DNA of 39,959 nucleotides, taken from a virus. Its lineage: Duplodnaviria; Heunggongvirae; Uroviricota; Caudoviricetes. Where the stretch lies: IMG/VR virus record IMGVR_UViG_3300027974_000025. One strand, written 5' to 3'. This document shows, piece after piece, positions 16,548 to 28,645 of the stretch (positions are counted from its first letter, which is position 1; each line of letters begins with the position of its first letter). The translations under genes and the position numbers were made by a program. The notes beneath the pieces were generated by a model. It had not been told where the DNA came from, ran no database searches, and saw only the letters and a list, made by a program, of their open reading frames with translations.

Positions 16548-19500
16548 ATGGATCCTATTTGCTCTGCTGAACCATGTCCAGTCATACTGAATTCCACCTG
16601 CGTATTTTACGAGGGTGCTAATTTGTTATACACTGGTATCAATACTAATGACAGCTTACAAACTGCTCTACAAAAAATAGATGCTAAGTTTCAGGAAGCT
16701 GCCATAGGATACATATTTAATAATGGTGTTTTTCAATCTGGACCAGGATTACCTGTAGGGCTTGGAGGAACACTAAATCAGAATACAGTCATTACTAGCA
16801 ATGGGTATACATTCAGAATGACAGGAACTATTGAATCAGCAGGATTCATAACCACTGGGGGAACATCATCAGACTTTGTTAAAGGAGATGGTAGCTTAGA
16901 TCCAAATTCCTATCAACCAGCTGGTAACTATATTACAGGATTGGTGGGTGATGGTACAGCAACAGGTCCTGGATCTGTAGCTTTAACATTAGCTACAGTG
17001 AATGCTAACCCTGGTACATATGGTAGTGGAACATCTGTTCCTATCATTACAACTGATGCTAAGGGTAGAATAGTTAATATTAGTTCTGCATCTATTCCTT
17101 TTGCTTCTAGCACTATTATTATTGTAGGTGACATGAGTGGTTCAGGAACCATAGGCACTCCTGTTACACTAACATTGAACTCAGTTAATAGCAATGTTTA
17201 CGCTAGTAATACATTCTTAAAGGTGGCTGTAAATGGTAAAGGATTAGTTACATCAGCAGTTACAGTGGGACCTGGAGACATCATCACAGCATTAGGATAC
17301 ACTCCTGTTCCAGACACTCGCACCATTACAATCAATGGTGTTACAAGAGATCTATCTGCTAACAGAACATTCAATGTAGGTACAGTGACAAGTGTAGGCA
17401 TAACTATGCCTTCAGGTTTTACAGTGTCAAATAGTCCCATTACATCTAATGGAGTTATTAATATAACAGCCAATGGTACTATTAGTCAATATATAAGAGG
17501 TGATGGTTCTATAGGTACATTCACTGCTAGTACAAGTGGTAGTTCAGGTACTGCTGGAACTAGTGGTAGTTCAGGAACTAGTGGATCTAGTGGGACAGTT
17601 GGTACAAGTGGGACTAGTGGAACTAGTGGAAGTTCAGGAACTAGTGGTACAGCTGGTACCAGTGGAACAAATGGTTCAAGCGGTACAAATGGTTCAAGTG
17701 GTACAGCAGGAACTAGTGGCACTACAGGTACAAGTGGGTCATCTGGTACAAGTGGATCGTCTGGTACAGTGGGTACTAGTGGTACATCAGGGTCTAGTGG
17801 AACTAGTGGTACAACTGGTACATCAGGAACTACTGGTACATCTGGGAGAAATGGTACTAGTGGTACAACAGGCACATCAGGTACAAGTGGTTCTACAGGA
17901 ACTACAGGTACAAGTGGAACTAGTGGCACTACAGGAACAAGTGGTACAGCAGGAAGCTCTGGTGTAAGTGGTATCTCTGGTGGTCAGATTTATTGGCTAA
18001 ATCTATCTAATAATACAAACACTGCTTTTGGCACACCTACATATAAACAATGGAGTCCTAATCCGTCTGGTGCTGCACAGCAAACAACTAGTATTACATT
18101 AGGTGCTTCAGCTAGTGGAACAGTTGCAACCTTTGCAACAGATAGTGGTGTTCCAAACATCACTTCATTAAATGGAGGTAACTGGGCTTGGACATTACAC
18201 TTCTTATCTAGTGCTAGTTCAACATGGGATTTAGATGTACGTTTATATAAATATACAATAGGTGGTGTTTCTACATTATTAGGAACTACAAATAACGTTG
18301 TAACAACAATTGATGGAACAATTGTTGCACAAATATATCTCGACACATTCATACCTGCACAATCATTAAATGCAACAGATAGGTTGTATTGTGAAGTGTA
18401 TGTTATAAATAATGATAGTGTAAGTAGAACATTAACTTTCTATACAGAAGGTTCAACGTATTACTCTTACGCACAAACCACATTCAATGCACCTTCAGGT
18501 ACCTCTGGTACAGCAGGGGCTAATGGTACATCAGGAACTAATGGCTCATCAGGAACATCTGGCTCCACTGGTACCACTGGTACATCTGGCACGTCTGGAA
18601 CTAGTGGATCTTCAGGTACAAGTGCATCTAGTGGATCTAGTGGAACAAGTGCTTCTTCAGGAACTAGTGGATCTACAGGTACTTCAGGTACCTCTGGTAC
18701 ATCAGGTTCATCTGGTATATCTGGTTCTAGTGGAACTAGTGGGTCTAGTGGAACTAATGGTTCTAATGGATCTTCTGGTTCATCAGGAACTAATGGTTCT
18801 TCTGGAACCAATGGATCTAGTGGTACTACTGGTACATCTGGAATAAGTGGTACTAGTGGTTTATCTGGTTCATCTGGTACAACTGGAACAAGTGGTTCAT
18901 CAGGAACCACAGGTACTAGTGGCTTTAGTGGAACTAGTGGGTCTAGTGGAACTAATGGTTCTTCAGGAGTTAATGGAACATCAGGAACTAATGGTTCTAG
19001 TGGTATAACAGGAACTAATGGATCTAGTGGTACATCAGGAACCGCAGGTACTAGTGGTACTAGTGGAAGCTCTGGCTCTTCTGGAACAGATGGTTCTAGT
19101 GGAACAAGTGCTAGTTCTGGTACAAGTGGATCTAGTGGTACAAATGGTTCTTCAGGGTCTTCAGGAACAAGTGGAAGTTCTGGTTCTACAGGAACGAGTG
19201 GTTCTAGTGGAATAAATGGAAATGGAACAGCTGGTACTAGTGGTGTTGGTTCTCCTGGTACAGCTGGAACTTCAGGTGTTGGTAGTCCTGGAACAAGTGG
19301 AACAAGTGGATTAAATGCTACAGCTGGTACTAGTGGAGTTAGTGGAAATGGAACAGCTGGAACAAGTGGAGCTACATTTGGTACTGCAGGTACTAGTGGT
19401 AATGCCTCAATATTAACTAGTCCTTCTACAACAACAATTCAAATTCCTCTTGCTACATATATAATTGGGCAAGCTGCTCTTGGTGGTATAATAGCATATA

Positions 19501-21029
19501 TTCTTCAATCTGGAGATCCAGGATATATTTCAAGTGCTCAGAAAGGTTTAGTGGCAACAACTGCAAATACTTCAACAGGTGCACAATGGGGATGTCAAGG
19601 AACTACTATATCAGGAGCAGATGGAACTGCAATAGGAACAGGTAATCAAAACACCATTGATATAATGGCTGGTTGTGCTACAGCAGGAATTGCTGCTAGA
19701 TTATGTGGTGATTTAGTAGAAGGAGGATATGACGACTGGTATTTACCAAGTAAAGATGAGTTAAATAAATTGTACTTAAATAAAATAGCTATTGGTGGTT
19801 TTGCGAATAACTCCTATTATAGTTCTACAGAGGCCAGCGACATCTTCGCGTGGGCCCAGGATTTCATCGCTGGCGGTCCATACGTCAACGCTAAGTCCAA
19901 CAATAGCTATGTTCGCGCCATTAGATCATTTGATGCATCTCTAGTAACATTAACTGTAAATACAGGACTTGCTTTTACAACTGGGCAGTTTGTTCAAGTT
20001 ATAAATAGTTCTACTAATTATATATTTGGACAAATTGTATCATATAATTCTAGCACAGGTGAATTAGTTATTACAGCAAGTACTACAAGTGGTAATGGTA
20101 CATTTAGTTCTTGGATAGTTGTTGCTGGTGGTAATAATGGCTCTAGTGGAACTGCAGGTACATCTGGTTTAACTGGTTCTTCTGGTACAGATGGATCTAG
20201 TGGACAAACATATGGTACTTCTGGAACCTCAGGAACAAATGGAACAAGTGGGACATCAGGAACATCTGGTACAAATGGATCAAATGGATCTAGTGGAACT
20301 ACTGGTACTTCTGGTACAAATGGTTCAGCAGGAACTAGTGGAGCAACCTTTGGTACAGCTGGTACTTCTGGAGCTACCTTTGGAACTGCAGGAACGTCAG
20401 GAGCTACCTTTGGAACTAGTGGTACTAGTGGATTTGCTATATCAGAAATTGCTATTTCTGGTACACAAAATGGATCAAATAAAACATTTACATTAGCATC
20501 TGCTCTTATAATAGGAACTGTACATCAGTTTTATTTAAATGGTCAATTGTTAGTTTATACTAATGACTACACTATATCAGGAACAACATTAACCTTTGCT
20601 ACAGACAGACCTGCTCCTACACCATCTGATGCTTTGAAAATATATGGAGCTGTTGGTGGATCTACTATGGCAGGTATTCCTTTAGGTGGATCTACAGGAC
20701 AGGCTTTATTAAAAGCTTCAGCTACAAACTATGATGTTGTATGGGGAGATGTATTAAACATACAACAAATCAATGGCCAATCTGGTAATATAACAGCAGG
20801 TAATGCACCAGAAGTAATTTATGTATATGAGTTTACAGGAGCTGGTACACTTACATTACCTACAGCTGTAGGAAATTCTTGTATTTATAAAATAAAAAAT
20901 AGGGCTAGTGTTAATATTTTTGTTACCTTTACATCTGGACAGAATGCTGATGGGTCTACAAGTATATCATTAACACCATATACAGCGTTAGACTTTATAT
21001 CAAATAACTCAAATTATAATATTTATTAA
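16548..21029 (+). CDS. Multidomain collagen-like tail/capsid fibre with an internal DUF1566/C-type-lectin-fold domain
   Basis: 1493 aa. Cys-containing N-terminal module; TDAKGR/VNGKGLVT shaft-type motifs; three Gly-X-Y tracts; YIIGQAALGGIIAY...DDWYLPSKDEL...SSTE...AW...VRAIRSF (nt 19458-19931); C-terminal FYLNGQLL...DYTISG and GGSTGQALLKAS fibre modules. Confidence 0.82.
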   Translation: MDPICSAEPCPVILNSTCVFYEGANLLYTGINTNDSLQTALQKIDAKFQEAAIGYIFNNGVFQSGPGLPVGLGGTLNQNTVITSNGYTFRMTGTIESAGFITTGGTSSDFVKGDGSLDPNSYQPAGNYITGLVGDGTATGPGSVALTLATVNANPGTYGSGTSVPIITTDAKGRIVNISSASIPFASSTIIIVGDMSGSGTIGTPVTLTLNSVNSNVYASNTFLKVAVNGKGLVTSAVTVGPGDIITALGYTPVPDTRTITINGVTRDLSANRTFNVGTVTSVGITMPSGFTVSNSPITSNGVINITANGTISQYIRGDGSIGTFTASTSGSSGTAGTSGSSGTSGSSGTVGTSGTSGTSGSSGTSGTAGTSGTNGSSGTNGSSGTAGTSGTTGTSGSSGTSGSSGTVGTSGTSGSSGTSGTTGTSGTTGTSGRNGTSGTTGTSGTSGSTGTTGTSGTSGTTGTSGTAGSSGVSGISGGQIYWLNLSNNTNTAFGTPTYKQWSPNPSGAAQQTTSITLGASASGTVATFATDSGVPNITSLNGGNWAWTLHFLSSASSTWDLDVRLYKYTIGGVSTLLGTTNNVVTTIDGTIVAQIYLDTFIPAQSLNATDRLYCEVYVINNDSVSRTLTFYTEGSTYYSYAQTTFNAPSGTSGTAGANGTSGTNGSSGTSGSTGTTGTSGTSGTSGSSGTSASSGSSGTSASSGTSGSTGTSGTSGTSGSSGISGSSGTSGSSGTNGSNGSSGSSGTNGSSGTNGSSGTTGTSGISGTSGLSGSSGTTGTSGSSGTTGTSGFSGTSGSSGTNGSSGVNGTSGTNGSSGITGTNGSSGTSGTAGTSGTSGSSGSSGTDGSSGTSASSGTSGSSGTNGSSGSSGTSGSSGSTGTSGSSGINGNGTAGTSGVGSPGTAGTSGVGSPGTSGTSGLNATAGTSGVSGNGTAGTSGATFGTAGTSGNASILTSPSTTTIQIPLATYIIGQAALGGIIAYILQSGDPGYISSAQKGLVATTANTSTGAQWGCQGTTISGADGTAIGTGNQNTIDIMAGCATAGIAARLCGDLVEGGYDDWYLPSKDELNKLYLNKIAIGGFANNSYYSSTEASDIFAWAQDFIAGGPYVNAKSNNSYVRAIRSFDASLVTLTVNTGLAFTTGQFVQVINSSTNYIFGQIVSYNSSTGELVITASTTSGNGTFSSWIVVAGGNNGSSGTAGTSGLTGSSGTDGSSGQTYGTSGTSGTNGTSGTSGTSGTNGSNGSSGTTGTSGTNGSAGTSGATFGTAGTSGATFGTAGTSGATFGTSGTSGFAISEIAISGTQNGSNKTFTLASALIIGTVHQFYLNGQLLVYTNDYTISGTTLTFATDRPAPTPSDALKIYGAVGGSTMAGIPLGGSTGQALLKASATNYDVVWGDVLNIQQINGQSGNITAGNAPEVIYVYEFTGAGTLTLPTAVGNSCIYKIKNRASVNIFVTFTSGQNADGSTSISLTPYTALDFISNNSNYNIY
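17538..17978 (+). repeat. Uninterrupted (Gly-X-Y)49 tract, X/Y almost all Thr/Ser, no proline
   Basis: Translation GSS GTA GTS GSS GTS...GVS GIS; 49 triplets counted by hand. Confidence 0.92.
18498..19400 (+). repeat. Second Gly-Thr/Ser-Ser collagen-like tract (~300 aa) with a few interruptions
   Basis: GTS/GSS/GTN triplets. Interruptions are Gly-to-Ala (TSASSG) and short inserts (GNG, GVGSPG, GATF). Confidence 0.9.
19803..19931 (+). other. Putative diversity-generating retroelement variable region (VR)
   Basis: 19 of 37 codons in 19809-19919 end in C, with about 10 CpG in ~120 bp of an otherwise CpG-poor, A/T-third-position sequence. The variable codons are explainable as AAY derivatives (gcc agc gac atc ttc) between fixed SSTE / AW / F / G / K / VRAI scaffold codons. 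Confidence 0.75.
20130..20432 (+). repeat. Third Gly-Thr/Ser-Ser collagen-like tract with GQTY/GATF interruptions
   Basis: Translation GNNGSSGTAGTSG...GTAGTSGATF x3...GTSG. Confidence 0.88.
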
Positions 21030-25935: not shown

Positions 25936-26796
25936 ATGTTTTTTGATATATTAAATAAAGAAGGACTTTGGATATATAATATAACTTCATCTAGTTGGTT
26001 TACTTGGGATAAACCTGATCAATATCAAAACTTTTTCATCATGGCTTGTGGAGCTGGTGGTGGGGGTGGTAATGGTTTTTCAGGAGCAGCAAGTACTAAC
26101 AGAGGTGGGGGAGGTGGTGGTGCTGGTGGTCAAATCATGAATATGTATGCCCCATCATTTCTTCTTCCAGATACATTATATATAAGTGTGGGAGCTGGTG
26201 GAGCAGGTATTATAAATGGAAGAGCTTCAAGTGTATTAAATCAGGGTAACACAACTTATGTAAACTATTATCCAAACTTAAATATAAGTAATATTATATT
26301 AAATGCTGCAGGTGGTGGAGCTGGTGGTATAGGATTATCTACTGGAACTGCTGCAGGTGGTATAGGATTACCCAACTCTCCTACTAACACTTTACTATCT
26401 ATATCAGCACAAGGAGCAAGTGCAGGAACTCCTGGTGGTATTAATACAGGTGATGTTGGTACAAATTTTTCAGCAACAACCTCTTGTATATATGGTGGAA
26501 CTGGTGGAGGAAGTATTGGAACAGCCAACACTGCTTTTGCAGGAGGAAATATTTTAGCAAGTGATGTTCATCCACAAATAAATGGTGGAGCTATAGATTC
26601 AAATGGAGGTGATGGAGTTTTTATAAAAAAACCTTTTTCAGCTATTGGTGGAACTGGTGGAGGTTCTTCTACTACTACTGGTGGAAAAGGTGGTAATGGT
26701 GTTTGGGGATCTGGTGGCGGAGGAGGTGGTGGTGGTATTATTGGAGGCAATGGTGGTAATGGTGGTAATGGTTTTGTAATAATAATAGGATTCTAA
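25936..26796 (+). CDS. Glycine-rich adhesin-like protein, paralogue 1
   Basis: 286 aa. TWDKP...GAGGGGGNG...GGGGGAGG...P.FLLPDTLYISVGAGG; ends GGNGGNGFVIIIGF. Confidence 0.75.
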   Translation: MFFDILNKEGLWIYNITSSSWFTWDKPDQYQNFFIMACGAGGGGGNGFSGAASTNRGGGGGGAGGQIMNMYAPSFLLPDTLYISVGAGGAGIINGRASSVLNQGNTTYVNYYPNLNISNIILNAAGGGAGGIGLSTGTAAGGIGLPNSPTNTLLSISAQGASAGTPGGINTGDVGTNFSATTSCIYGGTGGGSIGTANTAFAGGNILASDVHPQINGGAIDSNGGDGVFIKKPFSAIGGTGGGSSTTTGGKGGNGVWGSGGGGGGGGIIGGNGGNGGNGFVIIIGF

Positions 26797-27761
26797 TGAT
26801 AGATTTTAAATACTTAACATCAGACATGAATGTTGATAGACAAACTTTCTATTCAACTAGTGGATTGACATGGCAAACATGGACTAAACCAAAAGGTAGA
26901 TCTATGGCTTACATGCTCATAATTGGTGGAGGAGGTGGTGGAGGAACTGGAACCCAATTTTTTGGATTTGTAAATACTCAAGGTGGAGCTGGTGGTGGTG
27001 CTGGTGGTATTACATCTTTACTAGTTCCTTTTTTCTTAATTCCTGATACACTATATATACAACCTGGAACATTTGGTACAGGTGGGCCTTTTGAAAATGG
27101 TGGAAGTGCATCAGGACAACCAGGAGCAGCAAGTTATGTATCAGTGTATCCAAATACTAATGCAAATAATGTTTTAGCTCAAGCTAATGGAGGGGGTGCT
27201 GGTTTTGCTGTTACTACTACTCCTGGAGTTGGAGGAGCACCTATTTTAGCTACTAGTACAACAAAACCTAGATATTTTAGTCTGTGTAATGTAACTTCAT
27301 ATGCAGGACAAGATGGTGGTGGTGGAAGTAACACTGGAAATAATTCTAGTAGAACTTTTACATCTCCTTGGTCATCTCTTGTAATCAATAGTATTGCCAC
27401 TGGTGGTGCTGGTGGTGGAGGAGGAGGAGATGGTTATGAATTTGGTGCTGCTGGTGGATATGGTGGAAGTATAATAGGAGGAGATGATCTATCTACATTT
27501 TTAAAAGATGTTAATGGAGGTCCTGCTGCTGCAGGTGCTGGTGGTGCAGGAGGTGATGGATATTTTAATTTAAAACCTTGGTTATCTGTAGGGGGTGCTG
27601 GATCTGGTGGTCAAGTGAACTACGTTTCTGGTGGAGCAATAGCAGGTAAAGCTAATGGATATGGTAGTGGAGGAGGAGGAGCTGGTCCTGGATCTGCTAA
27701 TGATGGTGCAGCAATTGGAGGAGATGGTGCTCCTGGAATAGTGATAATAATAAGTTATTAA
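26796..27761 (+). CDS. Glycine-rich adhesin-like protein, paralogue 2
   Basis: 321 aa. TWTKPKG...IGGGGGGG...GGAGGGAGG...PFFLIPDTLYIQPG; ends GGDGAPGIVIIISY. Confidence 0.75.
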   Translation: MIDFKYLTSDMNVDRQTFYSTSGLTWQTWTKPKGRSMAYMLIIGGGGGGGTGTQFFGFVNTQGGAGGGAGGITSLLVPFFLIPDTLYIQPGTFGTGGPFENGGSASGQPGAASYVSVYPNTNANNVLAQANGGGAGFAVTTTPGVGGAPILATSTTKPRYFSLCNVTSYAGQDGGGGSNTGNNSSRTFTSPWSSLVINSIATGGAGGGGGGDGYEFGAAGGYGGSIIGGDDLSTFLKDVNGGPAAAGAGGAGGDGYFNLKPWLSVGGAGSGGQVNYVSGGAIAGKANGYGSGGGGAGPGSANDGAAIGGDGAPGIVIIISY

Positions 27762-27763
27762 TT

Positions 27764-28645
27764 ATGATAAGTTTTCAAAATTTACCAACAAATGCTAAGG
27801 TGACATGGTTCATGCAACCTACATCAGGTAATGAAGTACATACTTGGACTAAACCTACAGGTTGTAACTTTATATATATAGTTGCTGTTGGTGGTGGAGG
27901 AGCTGGTGGTGCTGGATTTTCAGCAGCAGCAGGTAATCAAAGAACAGGAGGTGGTGGTGGAGGATCTGCAGCTATGTCATCTATACTTGTACCAGCAGTT
28001 TTAATAACAGATTCAATATTTATAAGAGTTGGTAGAGGAGGAACTTCATCAACTGTTCCTACATCAACTATAGTATCAGCATATAGAGTGGCTGCAGTGG
28101 GTGAATATTATCTAGTTGGATATCCTGGAAATAATGGAAGTGGTGGTACATCAATTATTCCTGGTACAGCAGGTGCTGGTGGAATTTGTCCTCTCACAGA
28201 TCCAACATTAACATTTGGATTAGGTCAGGTGGGTAAGTTTTCTGGATTTGATGGAGATGGTGGTGTAATAGGAGCAATGCCAGGTATGAGTGCTGTTAAT
28301 AAAAACTGTGATTTTATTCTTTCTGGAGGAGGTGGAGGAGCTGGCATAACAAATAATAATGCTGGAGGTCTTAGTGGTAGTAACTTATTATCAAACTTTC
28401 AACAAACAAATTATTCTACAGCTGTTTCAGGAGGTCTTTTAGGAAGTGCTGGAGGAAATGGTTTCTGGATACCAAAAACATTTAAGTTTTATGGTGGAGG
28501 CGGTGGAGGTTCAAACAATAGTATTGCAGGAGGTAATGGAGGTAAGGGTGCCCCTGGTTGTGGAGGTGGAGGAGGAGGTGGTGGAACCACAGGTGGAACA
28601 GGAGGAAATGGTGGAGATGGGTTTGTTCTTATAATAAGTTACTAA
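27764..28645 (+). CDS. Glycine-rich adhesin-like protein, paralogue 3
   Basis: 293 aa. TWTKPTG...VGGGGAGG...GGGGGGS...PAVLITDSIFIRVGRGG; ends GGNGGDGFVLIISY. Overlaps the convergent GT gene by 17 nt. Confidence 0.75.
   Translation: MISFQNLPTNAKVTWFMQPTSGNEVHTWTKPTGCNFIYIVAVGGGGAGGAGFSAAAGNQRTGGGGGGSAAMSSILVPAVLITDSIFIRVGRGGTSSTVPTSTIVSAYRVAAVGEYYLVGYPGNNGSGGTSIIPGTAGAGGICPLTDPTLTFGLGQVGKFSGFDGDGGVIGAMPGMSAVNKNCDFILSGGGGGAGITNNNAGGLSGSNLLSNFQQTNYSTAVSGGLLGSAGGNGFWIPKTFKFYGGGGGGSNNSIAGGNGGKGAPGCGGGGGGGGTTGGTGGNGGDGFVLIISY

Follow-up and report, generated by a model that had tools for sequence, protein, structure and literature searches.

A variable region in the collagen-like fibre of a freshwater crAss-like phage matches the template repeat of a bacterial diversity-generating retroelement

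Diversity-generating retroelements (DGRs) have been treated as self-contained systems in which target, template and enzyme travel as a unit, with remote targets regarded as restricted to a single cellular genome. Analysis of a 39,959-nucleotide stretch of tailed-phage DNA (IMG/VR record IMGVR_UViG_3300027974_000025; hereafter the window) revealed a DGR variable region (VR) inside a collagen-like fibre gene (16548..21029, + strand; 1493 aa). A search beyond the window, as had been proposed beforehand, located the template repeat (TR) together with a reverse transcriptase (RT) in bacterial contigs, and neither of them in the phage genome. Here the VR of a cassette-less phage matches a bacterial TR adenine by adenine, and such matches occur in three phage lineages. 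The identity of the region as a true DGR variable region can be regarded as settled, in agreement with the observation that had first pointed to it, and the region may have been written in trans by a DGR residing in the host.

The template was approached with a pattern built from the VRs of the window and of a related phage locus (L001), with N at sites where the two differ, "base or A" elsewhere, and two adenine-free anchors. Scanned against about 186,000 species genomes, this pattern returned exactly one record, the metagenome-assembled genome (MAG) of a Sediminibacterium sp. (G006, contig JBBAJV010000008.1); an "X or A" pattern lacking the adenine-free anchors, run on metagenome contigs, yielded poly-A runs only. 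The TR-homologous span of the window (19797..19924, + strand) has 95 matches to the TR, with mismatches at 27 of 52 adenine sites and 6 of 76 other sites, and the adenine-site differences extend from 19812 to 19906. Within a 99-nt core the window differs from the TR at 25/44 adenine sites versus 5/55 other sites (Fisher p = 2.6e-7), and L001 at 20/44 versus 0/55 (Fisher p = 4e-9), while in the VR of a third lineage (L198-L200) 16 of the mismatches over 135 nt fall on adenine sites and 5 on other sites. The differences of the window's VR are almost confined to TR adenines, as is the mark of a DGR VR. The original prediction, which was made from the letters of the window alone, had held that the VR codons can be derived from adenine-rich template codons; the real TR bears this out, and the template written out at the time agrees with it at 89 of 93 bases. 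The further suggestion of an internal VR that is served by a distant or trans-acting cassette, or is a fossil, is supported by the TR match and by the presence of the cassette in bacterial contigs. Variation of related alleles at third or scaffold positions had been named as a sign against a DGR origin, but L001 and L198 differ from the window at the adenine-derived codon positions 1-2, and neither at third positions nor in scaffold codons. Compatibility of the family's VRs with the TR was also considered at the protein level, where it is not discriminating, since AAC codons reach 15 residues.

The region stands out from the surrounding DNA by its composition as well. The stretch originally delimited, 19803-19931, is in frame with the ORF (open reading frame) 16548..21029, as had been stated, and encodes aa 1086-1128, ANNSYYSSTEASDIFAWAQDFIAGGPYVNAKSNNSYVRAIRSF. 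Of its codons 19 end in C, which was counted correctly at the time, although the total is 43 codons and not 37; the estimate of about 10 CpG proved exact, with 10 counted in the 129 nt. In a window with a GC content of 35.6%, the 99-nt core contains 9 CpG, the maximum of all 39,959 nt (mean 0.43) and equalled by no other 99-nt stretch, and 17/33 of its codons end in C, compared with at most 10 (mean 2.7) elsewhere in the same ORF. A 27-codon core has a GC content of 0.54 and a fraction of C at third codon positions (C3) of 0.56, against 0.38 and 0.06 in the 110 codons that immediately precede it within the domain. The abrupt compositional island noticed from the sequence is the peak of the window in both CpG and C-ending codons. 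At its 3' side lies the GC-rich scaffold GTTCGCGCCATTAG (19911..19924, + strand; delimited by alignments), likely the start of a homing signal resembling the initiation of mutagenic homing (IMH) element; the letters of this scaffold do not vary between the TR, the cis VRs of the bacteria and the VRs of the three phages. With the following ATCATTT (19925..19931, + strand) the window departs from the bacterial IMH (GGCTTTT) and returns to the R-S-F codons of the phage family.

Similarity between phage and bacterium is co-extensive with the TR. In a blastn comparison of the window with the ~2-Mb Sediminibacterium MAG only 19792-19924 was significant, the targets being the TR and the cis VR, whose own homology starts ~12 nt before GGTTTT and ends at ATTAGGG.TTTT. 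Outside this tract the phage gene and the bacterial cis target gene share 55-71% identity in the 150 nt upstream and ~50% downstream, and at the protein level the lectin domains of phage and bacterium are only 35-49% identical. At the TR non-adenine sites, by contrast, the phage VRs are 92-99% identical to the cis VR of one further bacterial locus (L173). No other nucleotide link between phage and MAG, spacer-like ones included, was significant; one 30-nt match, at G006:C4, falls within ordinary coding sequence and was dismissed as chance.

The same lectin subtype was found at 29 IMG/VR loci (L001-L029). In these relatives the first ~110 residues are kept (61-73% identity), the ~30 residues that separate W-S-S-T-E from V-R-A-I-R-S-F are hypervariable, and the gene mostly ends directly after V-R-A-I-R-S-F. 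L001 and L002 contain the same compositional island (GC 0.53, C3 0.56), and L001 is nucleotide-identical to the window at every scaffold position, including those with C in third position. Over the 110 upstream codons the window and L001 differ at 15, 10 and 37 first, second and third positions, respectively (18 non-synonymous and 31 synonymous changes), whereas over the 33 VR codons they differ at 12, 11 and 4 (18 non-synonymous, 1 synonymous), and the two VRs look like two draws from one template. The third lineage (L198-L200; protein P0245), with crAss-like synteny and flanks ~90% identical to L001, holds another adenine-site draw. Pairs of phages agree at 66-72 of the 76 non-adenine TR sites and at 21-29 of the 52 adenine sites, and at the level of sequence three independent draws from one TR in three phage lineages are thereby demonstrated. 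The VR cores of three further relatives (L018, L025 and L015) show 18-25 adenine-site and 13-20 non-adenine differences, the latter mostly C-to-T or G-to-A changes in third positions, and may be older VRs that are drifting back to the AT-rich codon usage of the phage; the VRs of the remaining relatives bear no relation to the TR. Near-identical alleles differing only in the VR were not found among the homologues, all of which have at most 78% identity; neither the window's fibre nor the L001 protein has an exact entry in the protein cluster table, and blastn against the phage collection gave no match. The genes of L001 (9644-10450) and L198 (877-1635) encode small lectins of 268 and 252 aa, whose N-terminal module is conserved and which have a poly-Thr/Ser stalk; these genes are located near lysis genes, not within a collagen fibre.

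In the Sediminibacterium MAG the DGR locus (L166) consists of integrases, a 590-aa secreted target, bAvd, TR and RT, followed by Era, Der and Lon. The target (protein P0003; L166:5462-7234) ends in a C-terminal Lcl_C domain that contains the cis VR (L166:7104-7234), bAvd (PF22296, 1.6e-20) lies between the target and the AAC-rich TR (L166:7793-7927), and the RT (RVT_1, 1.2e-18) adjoins the TR. Compared with the TR, the cis VR lacks 2 nt after AAG, by which the frame is shifted so that the 590-aa target ends ...CATTAG and loses the final Y-V-R-A-I-R-x-F; either the allele is truly broken or the deletion arose as an artefact in assembling a hypervariable region. P0003 possesses a Sec-type signal peptide and two copies of a phage-tail-fibre-like repeat (...ATKLATARNINGVAFDGS.DI...), and this cellular variable protein looks as if it had been assembled from phage fibre parts. 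By its gene content the locus is a stretch of bacterial chromosome that contains a small integrative DGR element, and the carriers of this TR lineage are freshwater Bacteroidota. Among 301 sampled genomes from the family of the MAG, the RT lineage was found in the MAG only, apart from two homologues of 64-70% identity; close RT homologues (90-93% identity) are, in turn, common in freshwater metagenomes. Ten further metagenome loci (L172-L181) have the order target, bAvd, TR, RT, integrase and are neighboured by ECF sigma, FecR and TonB-type receptor genes; bAvd is present in 9/10, and L174 ends early, upstream of the RT. Across loci whose RTs are ~92% identical the TR is identical at 134/135 positions, while the cis VRs vary by locus. 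Since the same cassette occupies two chromosomal contexts, Era/Der/Lon in the MAG and integrase with ECF-sigma/FecR/TonB-receptor genes in the ten contigs, the bacterial DGR is judged to be mobile between chromosomal sites, as well as active. A GC-rich hairpin, GTCCGCG[A/T]AGCGGAC, follows ~28 nt downstream of the bacterial C-terminal cis VRs. One bacterial target of 1138 aa (L175:670-4086) contains two Lcl_C VRs for one TR, with a PTL_trimer domain between them; its internal VR has 24 adenine-site and 9 other mismatches and no hairpin downstream, so that an internal VR position is not peculiar to the phage. Neither the RT lineage nor the TR was found on IMG/VR contigs.

The window is part of a ~115-kb freshwater phage genome: a Joint Genome Institute (JGI) record, Ga0209298_10000010, matches it with 0-1 mismatches and contains the Pfam domains crAss_MUZ, CrAss_Ring_1, CrAss_Ring_2, Crass_capsid and P22_portal, and by these hallmark structural genes on the same genome the phage is assigned to the crAss-like phages (Crassvirales). 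The genome circle was traced via exact-protein look-ups and closed (L030, L155-L161, L204, L205). A scan of both strands of the window for copies with adenine-only mismatches gave no TR, the best candidate having 38 non-adenine mismatches in 129 nt, and no RT domain was detected among the scanned ORFs of at least 100 aa; the earlier remark that neither template nor RT is seen in the window agrees with both scans. In the closed genome no called gene matches PF00078, tblastn searches with the RT and Avd of the bacteria gave only E > 2.7 (RT: E > 3), and the best TR-like copy apart from the VR matches at 61/135. A relative with a CheckV completeness of 100% (G001) has neither RVT_1 nor TR, RVT_1 is missing from five whole relative records (one CheckV 100%, one 99%), and none of the 29 IMG/VR relatives has a TR within 10 kb of the VR. 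As judged from these genomes, it can be considered settled that the phage is devoid of RT, Avd and TR and that the template lineage resides in bacteria.

The fibre is composed of three Gly-X-Y collagen-like tracts, an internal Lcl_C domain and a C-terminal part of 365 aa (Pfam Collagen 2.2e-57, Lcl_C 1.6e-08), and the ~365 aa that had been predicted to follow the VR match this count. On the + strand, a first Gly-Thr/Ser-Ser tract (approximately 17514..17981) and a second tract (approximately 18486..19397), both with 9-nt periodic repeats, precede the lectin domain, and the third (approximately 20154..20417), seen in the translation, lies 3' of it. The Lcl_C/DUF1566 C-type-lectin-like domain (19440..19940, + strand; aa 965-1131) has a marginal match to PF07603 over aa 1005-1126 (nt 19560-19925), with 35.3 bits versus a cut-off of 34.9. 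However, an AlphaFold2 model of aa 965-1131, computed from an alignment of 34 relatives, has a pLDDT (predicted local distance difference test score) of 94.8, and a Foldseek search with this predicted domain gave as top match in the PDB the C-terminal domain of Legionella Lcl (8q4e_A; E 1.4e-8, TM (template modelling) score 0.72 on the target), followed by a Bacteroides fimbrial tip protein (4eps) and many C-type lectins. It is this fold match that supports the Lcl_C assignment despite the marginal Pfam score. The VR forms the ligand-binding C-terminal segment of an Lcl_C domain that is displayed mid-shaft on a collagen-like fibre. Legionella Lcl and the window's fibre both join collagen-like repeats to an Lcl_C domain. 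In Legionella Lcl this domain is at the C-terminus, and we know of no DGR diversification of that protein; in the window's fibre, unlike in Lcl, the domain is mid-shaft, has an extra Cys-rich insertion (GTGNQNTIDIMAGC...) and bears a VR. Elsewhere in the window, at 25936-28645, there are three tandem paralogues of 286, 321 and 293 aa (Pfam Gly_rich_2), which have repeated ends in common (families D13-D16).

The reading preferred here, with a probability of roughly 0.5, is that the phage VR was written in trans by a host-resident DGR during infection of a cell carrying the element. It is favoured because the shared tract is co-extensive with the TR, because three independent draws are seen and because there is experimental precedent for both trans action and heterologous targeting: avd-TR-brt act in trans from a plasmid (Wu 2017, PMC5758913), and IMH plus hairpin retarget a DGR to a foreign gene, with a low-efficiency route that is independent of the hairpin (Guo 2011, PMC3240598). 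The phage would replicate in a cell that carries the element, whose RT and Avd would make adenine-mutagenised cDNA from TR RNA, and this cDNA would integrate into the homologous stretch of the phage fibre gene. The GC-rich GTTCGCGCC...ATTAG end would serve as the 3' anchor, and the 5' crossover would take place in the conserved GGTTTT...AGTTCTAC..GAG. As a result, the binding surface of the fibre would be rewritten by machinery that the phage does not carry. In this scheme we infer that the carrier bacteria are the hosts and that the transfer proceeds via cDNA rather than by DNA recombination.

Several observations weigh against writing in trans. The match between VR and TR is the sole link between the phage and Sediminibacterium, and cDNA homing and DNA recombination are inseparable by sequence alone. 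All six non-adenine mismatches of the window's VR are A or T where the TR has G or C, which fits AT-biased decay or a slightly different donor TR. Judged by the rules established for phage BPP-1, in which a hairpin is needed for efficient homing (Guo 2011, PMC3240598), the window's VR would be a poor target: a GC-rich hairpin is absent after this VR and after that of L001, and the IMH diverges after ATTAG. The bacterial cis VRs and the phages L001 and L198 have the 3' end ...ATTAGGGCTTTT and the TR has ...GGGGTTTT or GGGTTTTT, whereas the window retains only GTTCGCGCCATTAG and continues with ATCATTT. Population data, which consisted of assembled contigs (Logan), in which rare variants would not show, likewise gave no sign of ongoing VR diversification in three runs. 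A single unbranched unitig covers 19737-20269 with 0 differences in runs X1 and X2, positions 19825-20127 are identical to the window in run X3, and L001 and L002 represent two samples with one VR. Taken together, the lack of visible diversification, the degenerate IMH and the absent hairpin make the VR of the window look frozen, or rewritten only on rare occasions.

Two further observations concern variation in related DNA. Some contigs of run X3 share the flanks of the VR but skip its core (joints 19784>19907 and 19833>19907), with other letters in between and a depth of 9-14; they may stem from other VRs, or from the TR itself, within that lake sample. The loci L006 and L007 differ at 4 of 13,232 nt, and two of these differences (L006:10102,10105; L007:6835,6838) are 3 nt apart in an AT-rich VR, both in codon position 2 (AAC/AGC and GCA/GTA; chance ~5e-4), which hints at focused change in such a VR.

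The main rival to writing in trans is DNA recombination or gene conversion, by which an already diversified bacterial VR would be copied into the phage gene without any cDNA. The missing hairpins, which would be expected of efficient homing targets, speak for it, as do the identical flanks of 25-35 nt on both sides, which could support short-patch conversion. L001 and L198 also have the VR-type 3' end GGGCTTTT like the bacterial cis VRs, and not the end of the TR; a VR-type IMH is, however, equally expected after retrohoming, as the IMH of the recipient is retained. In none of the three lineages does bacterial flank extend beyond the TR span, where identity falls to the values given above, and none of five bacterial cis VR alleles equals a phage allele. 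Recombination is considered rather unlikely, but it carries more weight than any other rival. Less probable again is a fossil origin, according to which ancestral phages had their own DGR of the same lineage and later lost RT, Avd and TR by deletion. Cis DGRs are known from crAss-like phages (crAssphage LMMB, PMC7290462), and in many members of Epsilonunovirus the RT is fragmented or missing (PMC11054128). The fixation of the window's VR in three runs also fits a fossil, as does the resemblance of L018, L025 and L015 to older, decaying VRs with 12-16 non-adenine mismatches in third positions, and a TR that is 134/135 identical across RTs of ~92% identity means that scaffold identity alone gives no date. 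Against this, two essentially complete genomes contain no remnant of RT, Avd or TR, the 29 relatives have no TR within 10 kb, and the RT lineage and the TR did not turn up on IMG/VR contigs. The cassette would have had to be lost cleanly in three lineages that are 9-15% diverged in the adjacent DNA, and the loss would have to be very recent, given that L001 has 0/55 non-adenine changes and that C-ending codons persist in a genome with a C3 of ~0.05.

The donor might also have been another mobile element with the same DGR lineage, such as a co-infecting phage, a satellite or a plasmid, and not the chromosome as such. In favour of this, the element around the cassette is small, contains integrases and DUF6291 genes and occurs in two insertion contexts, and the target proteins contain phage-fibre-like repeats as well as a PTL_trimer domain. 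Against it, all 11 loci have ordinary bacterial genes on their flanks (Era/Der/Lon or ECF sigma/FecR/TonB-type receptor), and viral contigs yielded no relative of the RT; such a donor is considered very improbable. That the region is no DGR product at all, and is an ordinary fast-evolving binding loop with a chance composition, has in effect been refuted already. Most relatives (L003-L029) do have AT-rich, highly divergent loops unrelated to the TR; nevertheless, the contrast between adenine and other sites (p = 2.6e-7 and 4e-9) and the 89/93 agreement of the predicted template leave next to no room for chance, and lineages with the same third positions in the VR diverge at 34% of those immediately upstream of it.

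The VR belongs to the same class as that of the Legionella pneumophila DGR with its target LdtA (category 'd'/CLec2, DUF1566; PMC5758913). Both have an AAC-rich TR and N-rich loops between fixed A-W, Q, F, G, K and Y-V-R-A-I-R at the DUF1566/Lcl_C end, and the bacterial donor cassette has the canonical order of the Legionella DGR, namely target, Avd, TR, RT. In Legionella, VR and cassette are in one genome, whereas here the VR is internal to a 1493-aa fibre of a cassette-less phage and the TR is in a bacterial chromosome. In Treponema denticola a DGR has seven dispersed targets, and, as here, one TR serves VRs far from the RT. Remote targets have been described only within one genome and were argued to be unexpected for phage-associated DGRs (Wu 2017, PMC5758913), and they were beyond the detection of a survey by its own account (Roux et al. 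2021, PMC8144416). These known remote targets share the genome of the RT, whereas the window's VR is on a different replicon and in a different organism, a virulent-type phage. The cis DGRs of crAss-like phages resemble the window in that a DGR-type VR is found in a tail-fibre or receptor-binding protein, but there TR and RT or their remnants adjoin the target, while here neither is in the genome and an intact matching cassette is in bacteria. As in Mtd and the DGR of BPP-1, a GC-rich 3' element closes the homology of TR and VR, and the hairpin ~28 nt downstream of the bacterial C-terminal cis VRs is inside the 4-34 bp range of BPP-1 (PMC3240598). A literature search that was non-exhaustive and not aimed squarely at host-encoded DGRs acting on phages turned up no case in which a phage VR had been matched with a bacterial TR.

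The approach used here, in which a scaffold pattern is combined with adenine-tolerant positions and adenine-free anchors, provides a search method for orphan VRs. If the VR was written in trans, phages can borrow the hypermutation machinery of their hosts to alter fibre binding; if it arrived by recombination, phages have in the output of bacterial DGRs a reservoir from which to draw variant binding sites. Both routes require that phage DNA and the bacterial element came together in one cell, which leads to a host hypothesis for uncultured freshwater crAss-like phages, namely Sediminibacterium-like Chitinophagaceae. A wider and more tentative proposal, with the odds somewhat against it, is that freshwater crAss-like phages outsource the hypermutation of their lectins to the DGRs of Bacteroidota hosts, so that each infection of a carrier could rewrite the VR. 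If this were true, L018, L025 and L015 would be lineages out of contact with carrier hosts, VR/TR matching would constitute a new kind of phage-host link, and a virulent phage would gain DGR-type tropism switching without encoding RT, Avd or TR.

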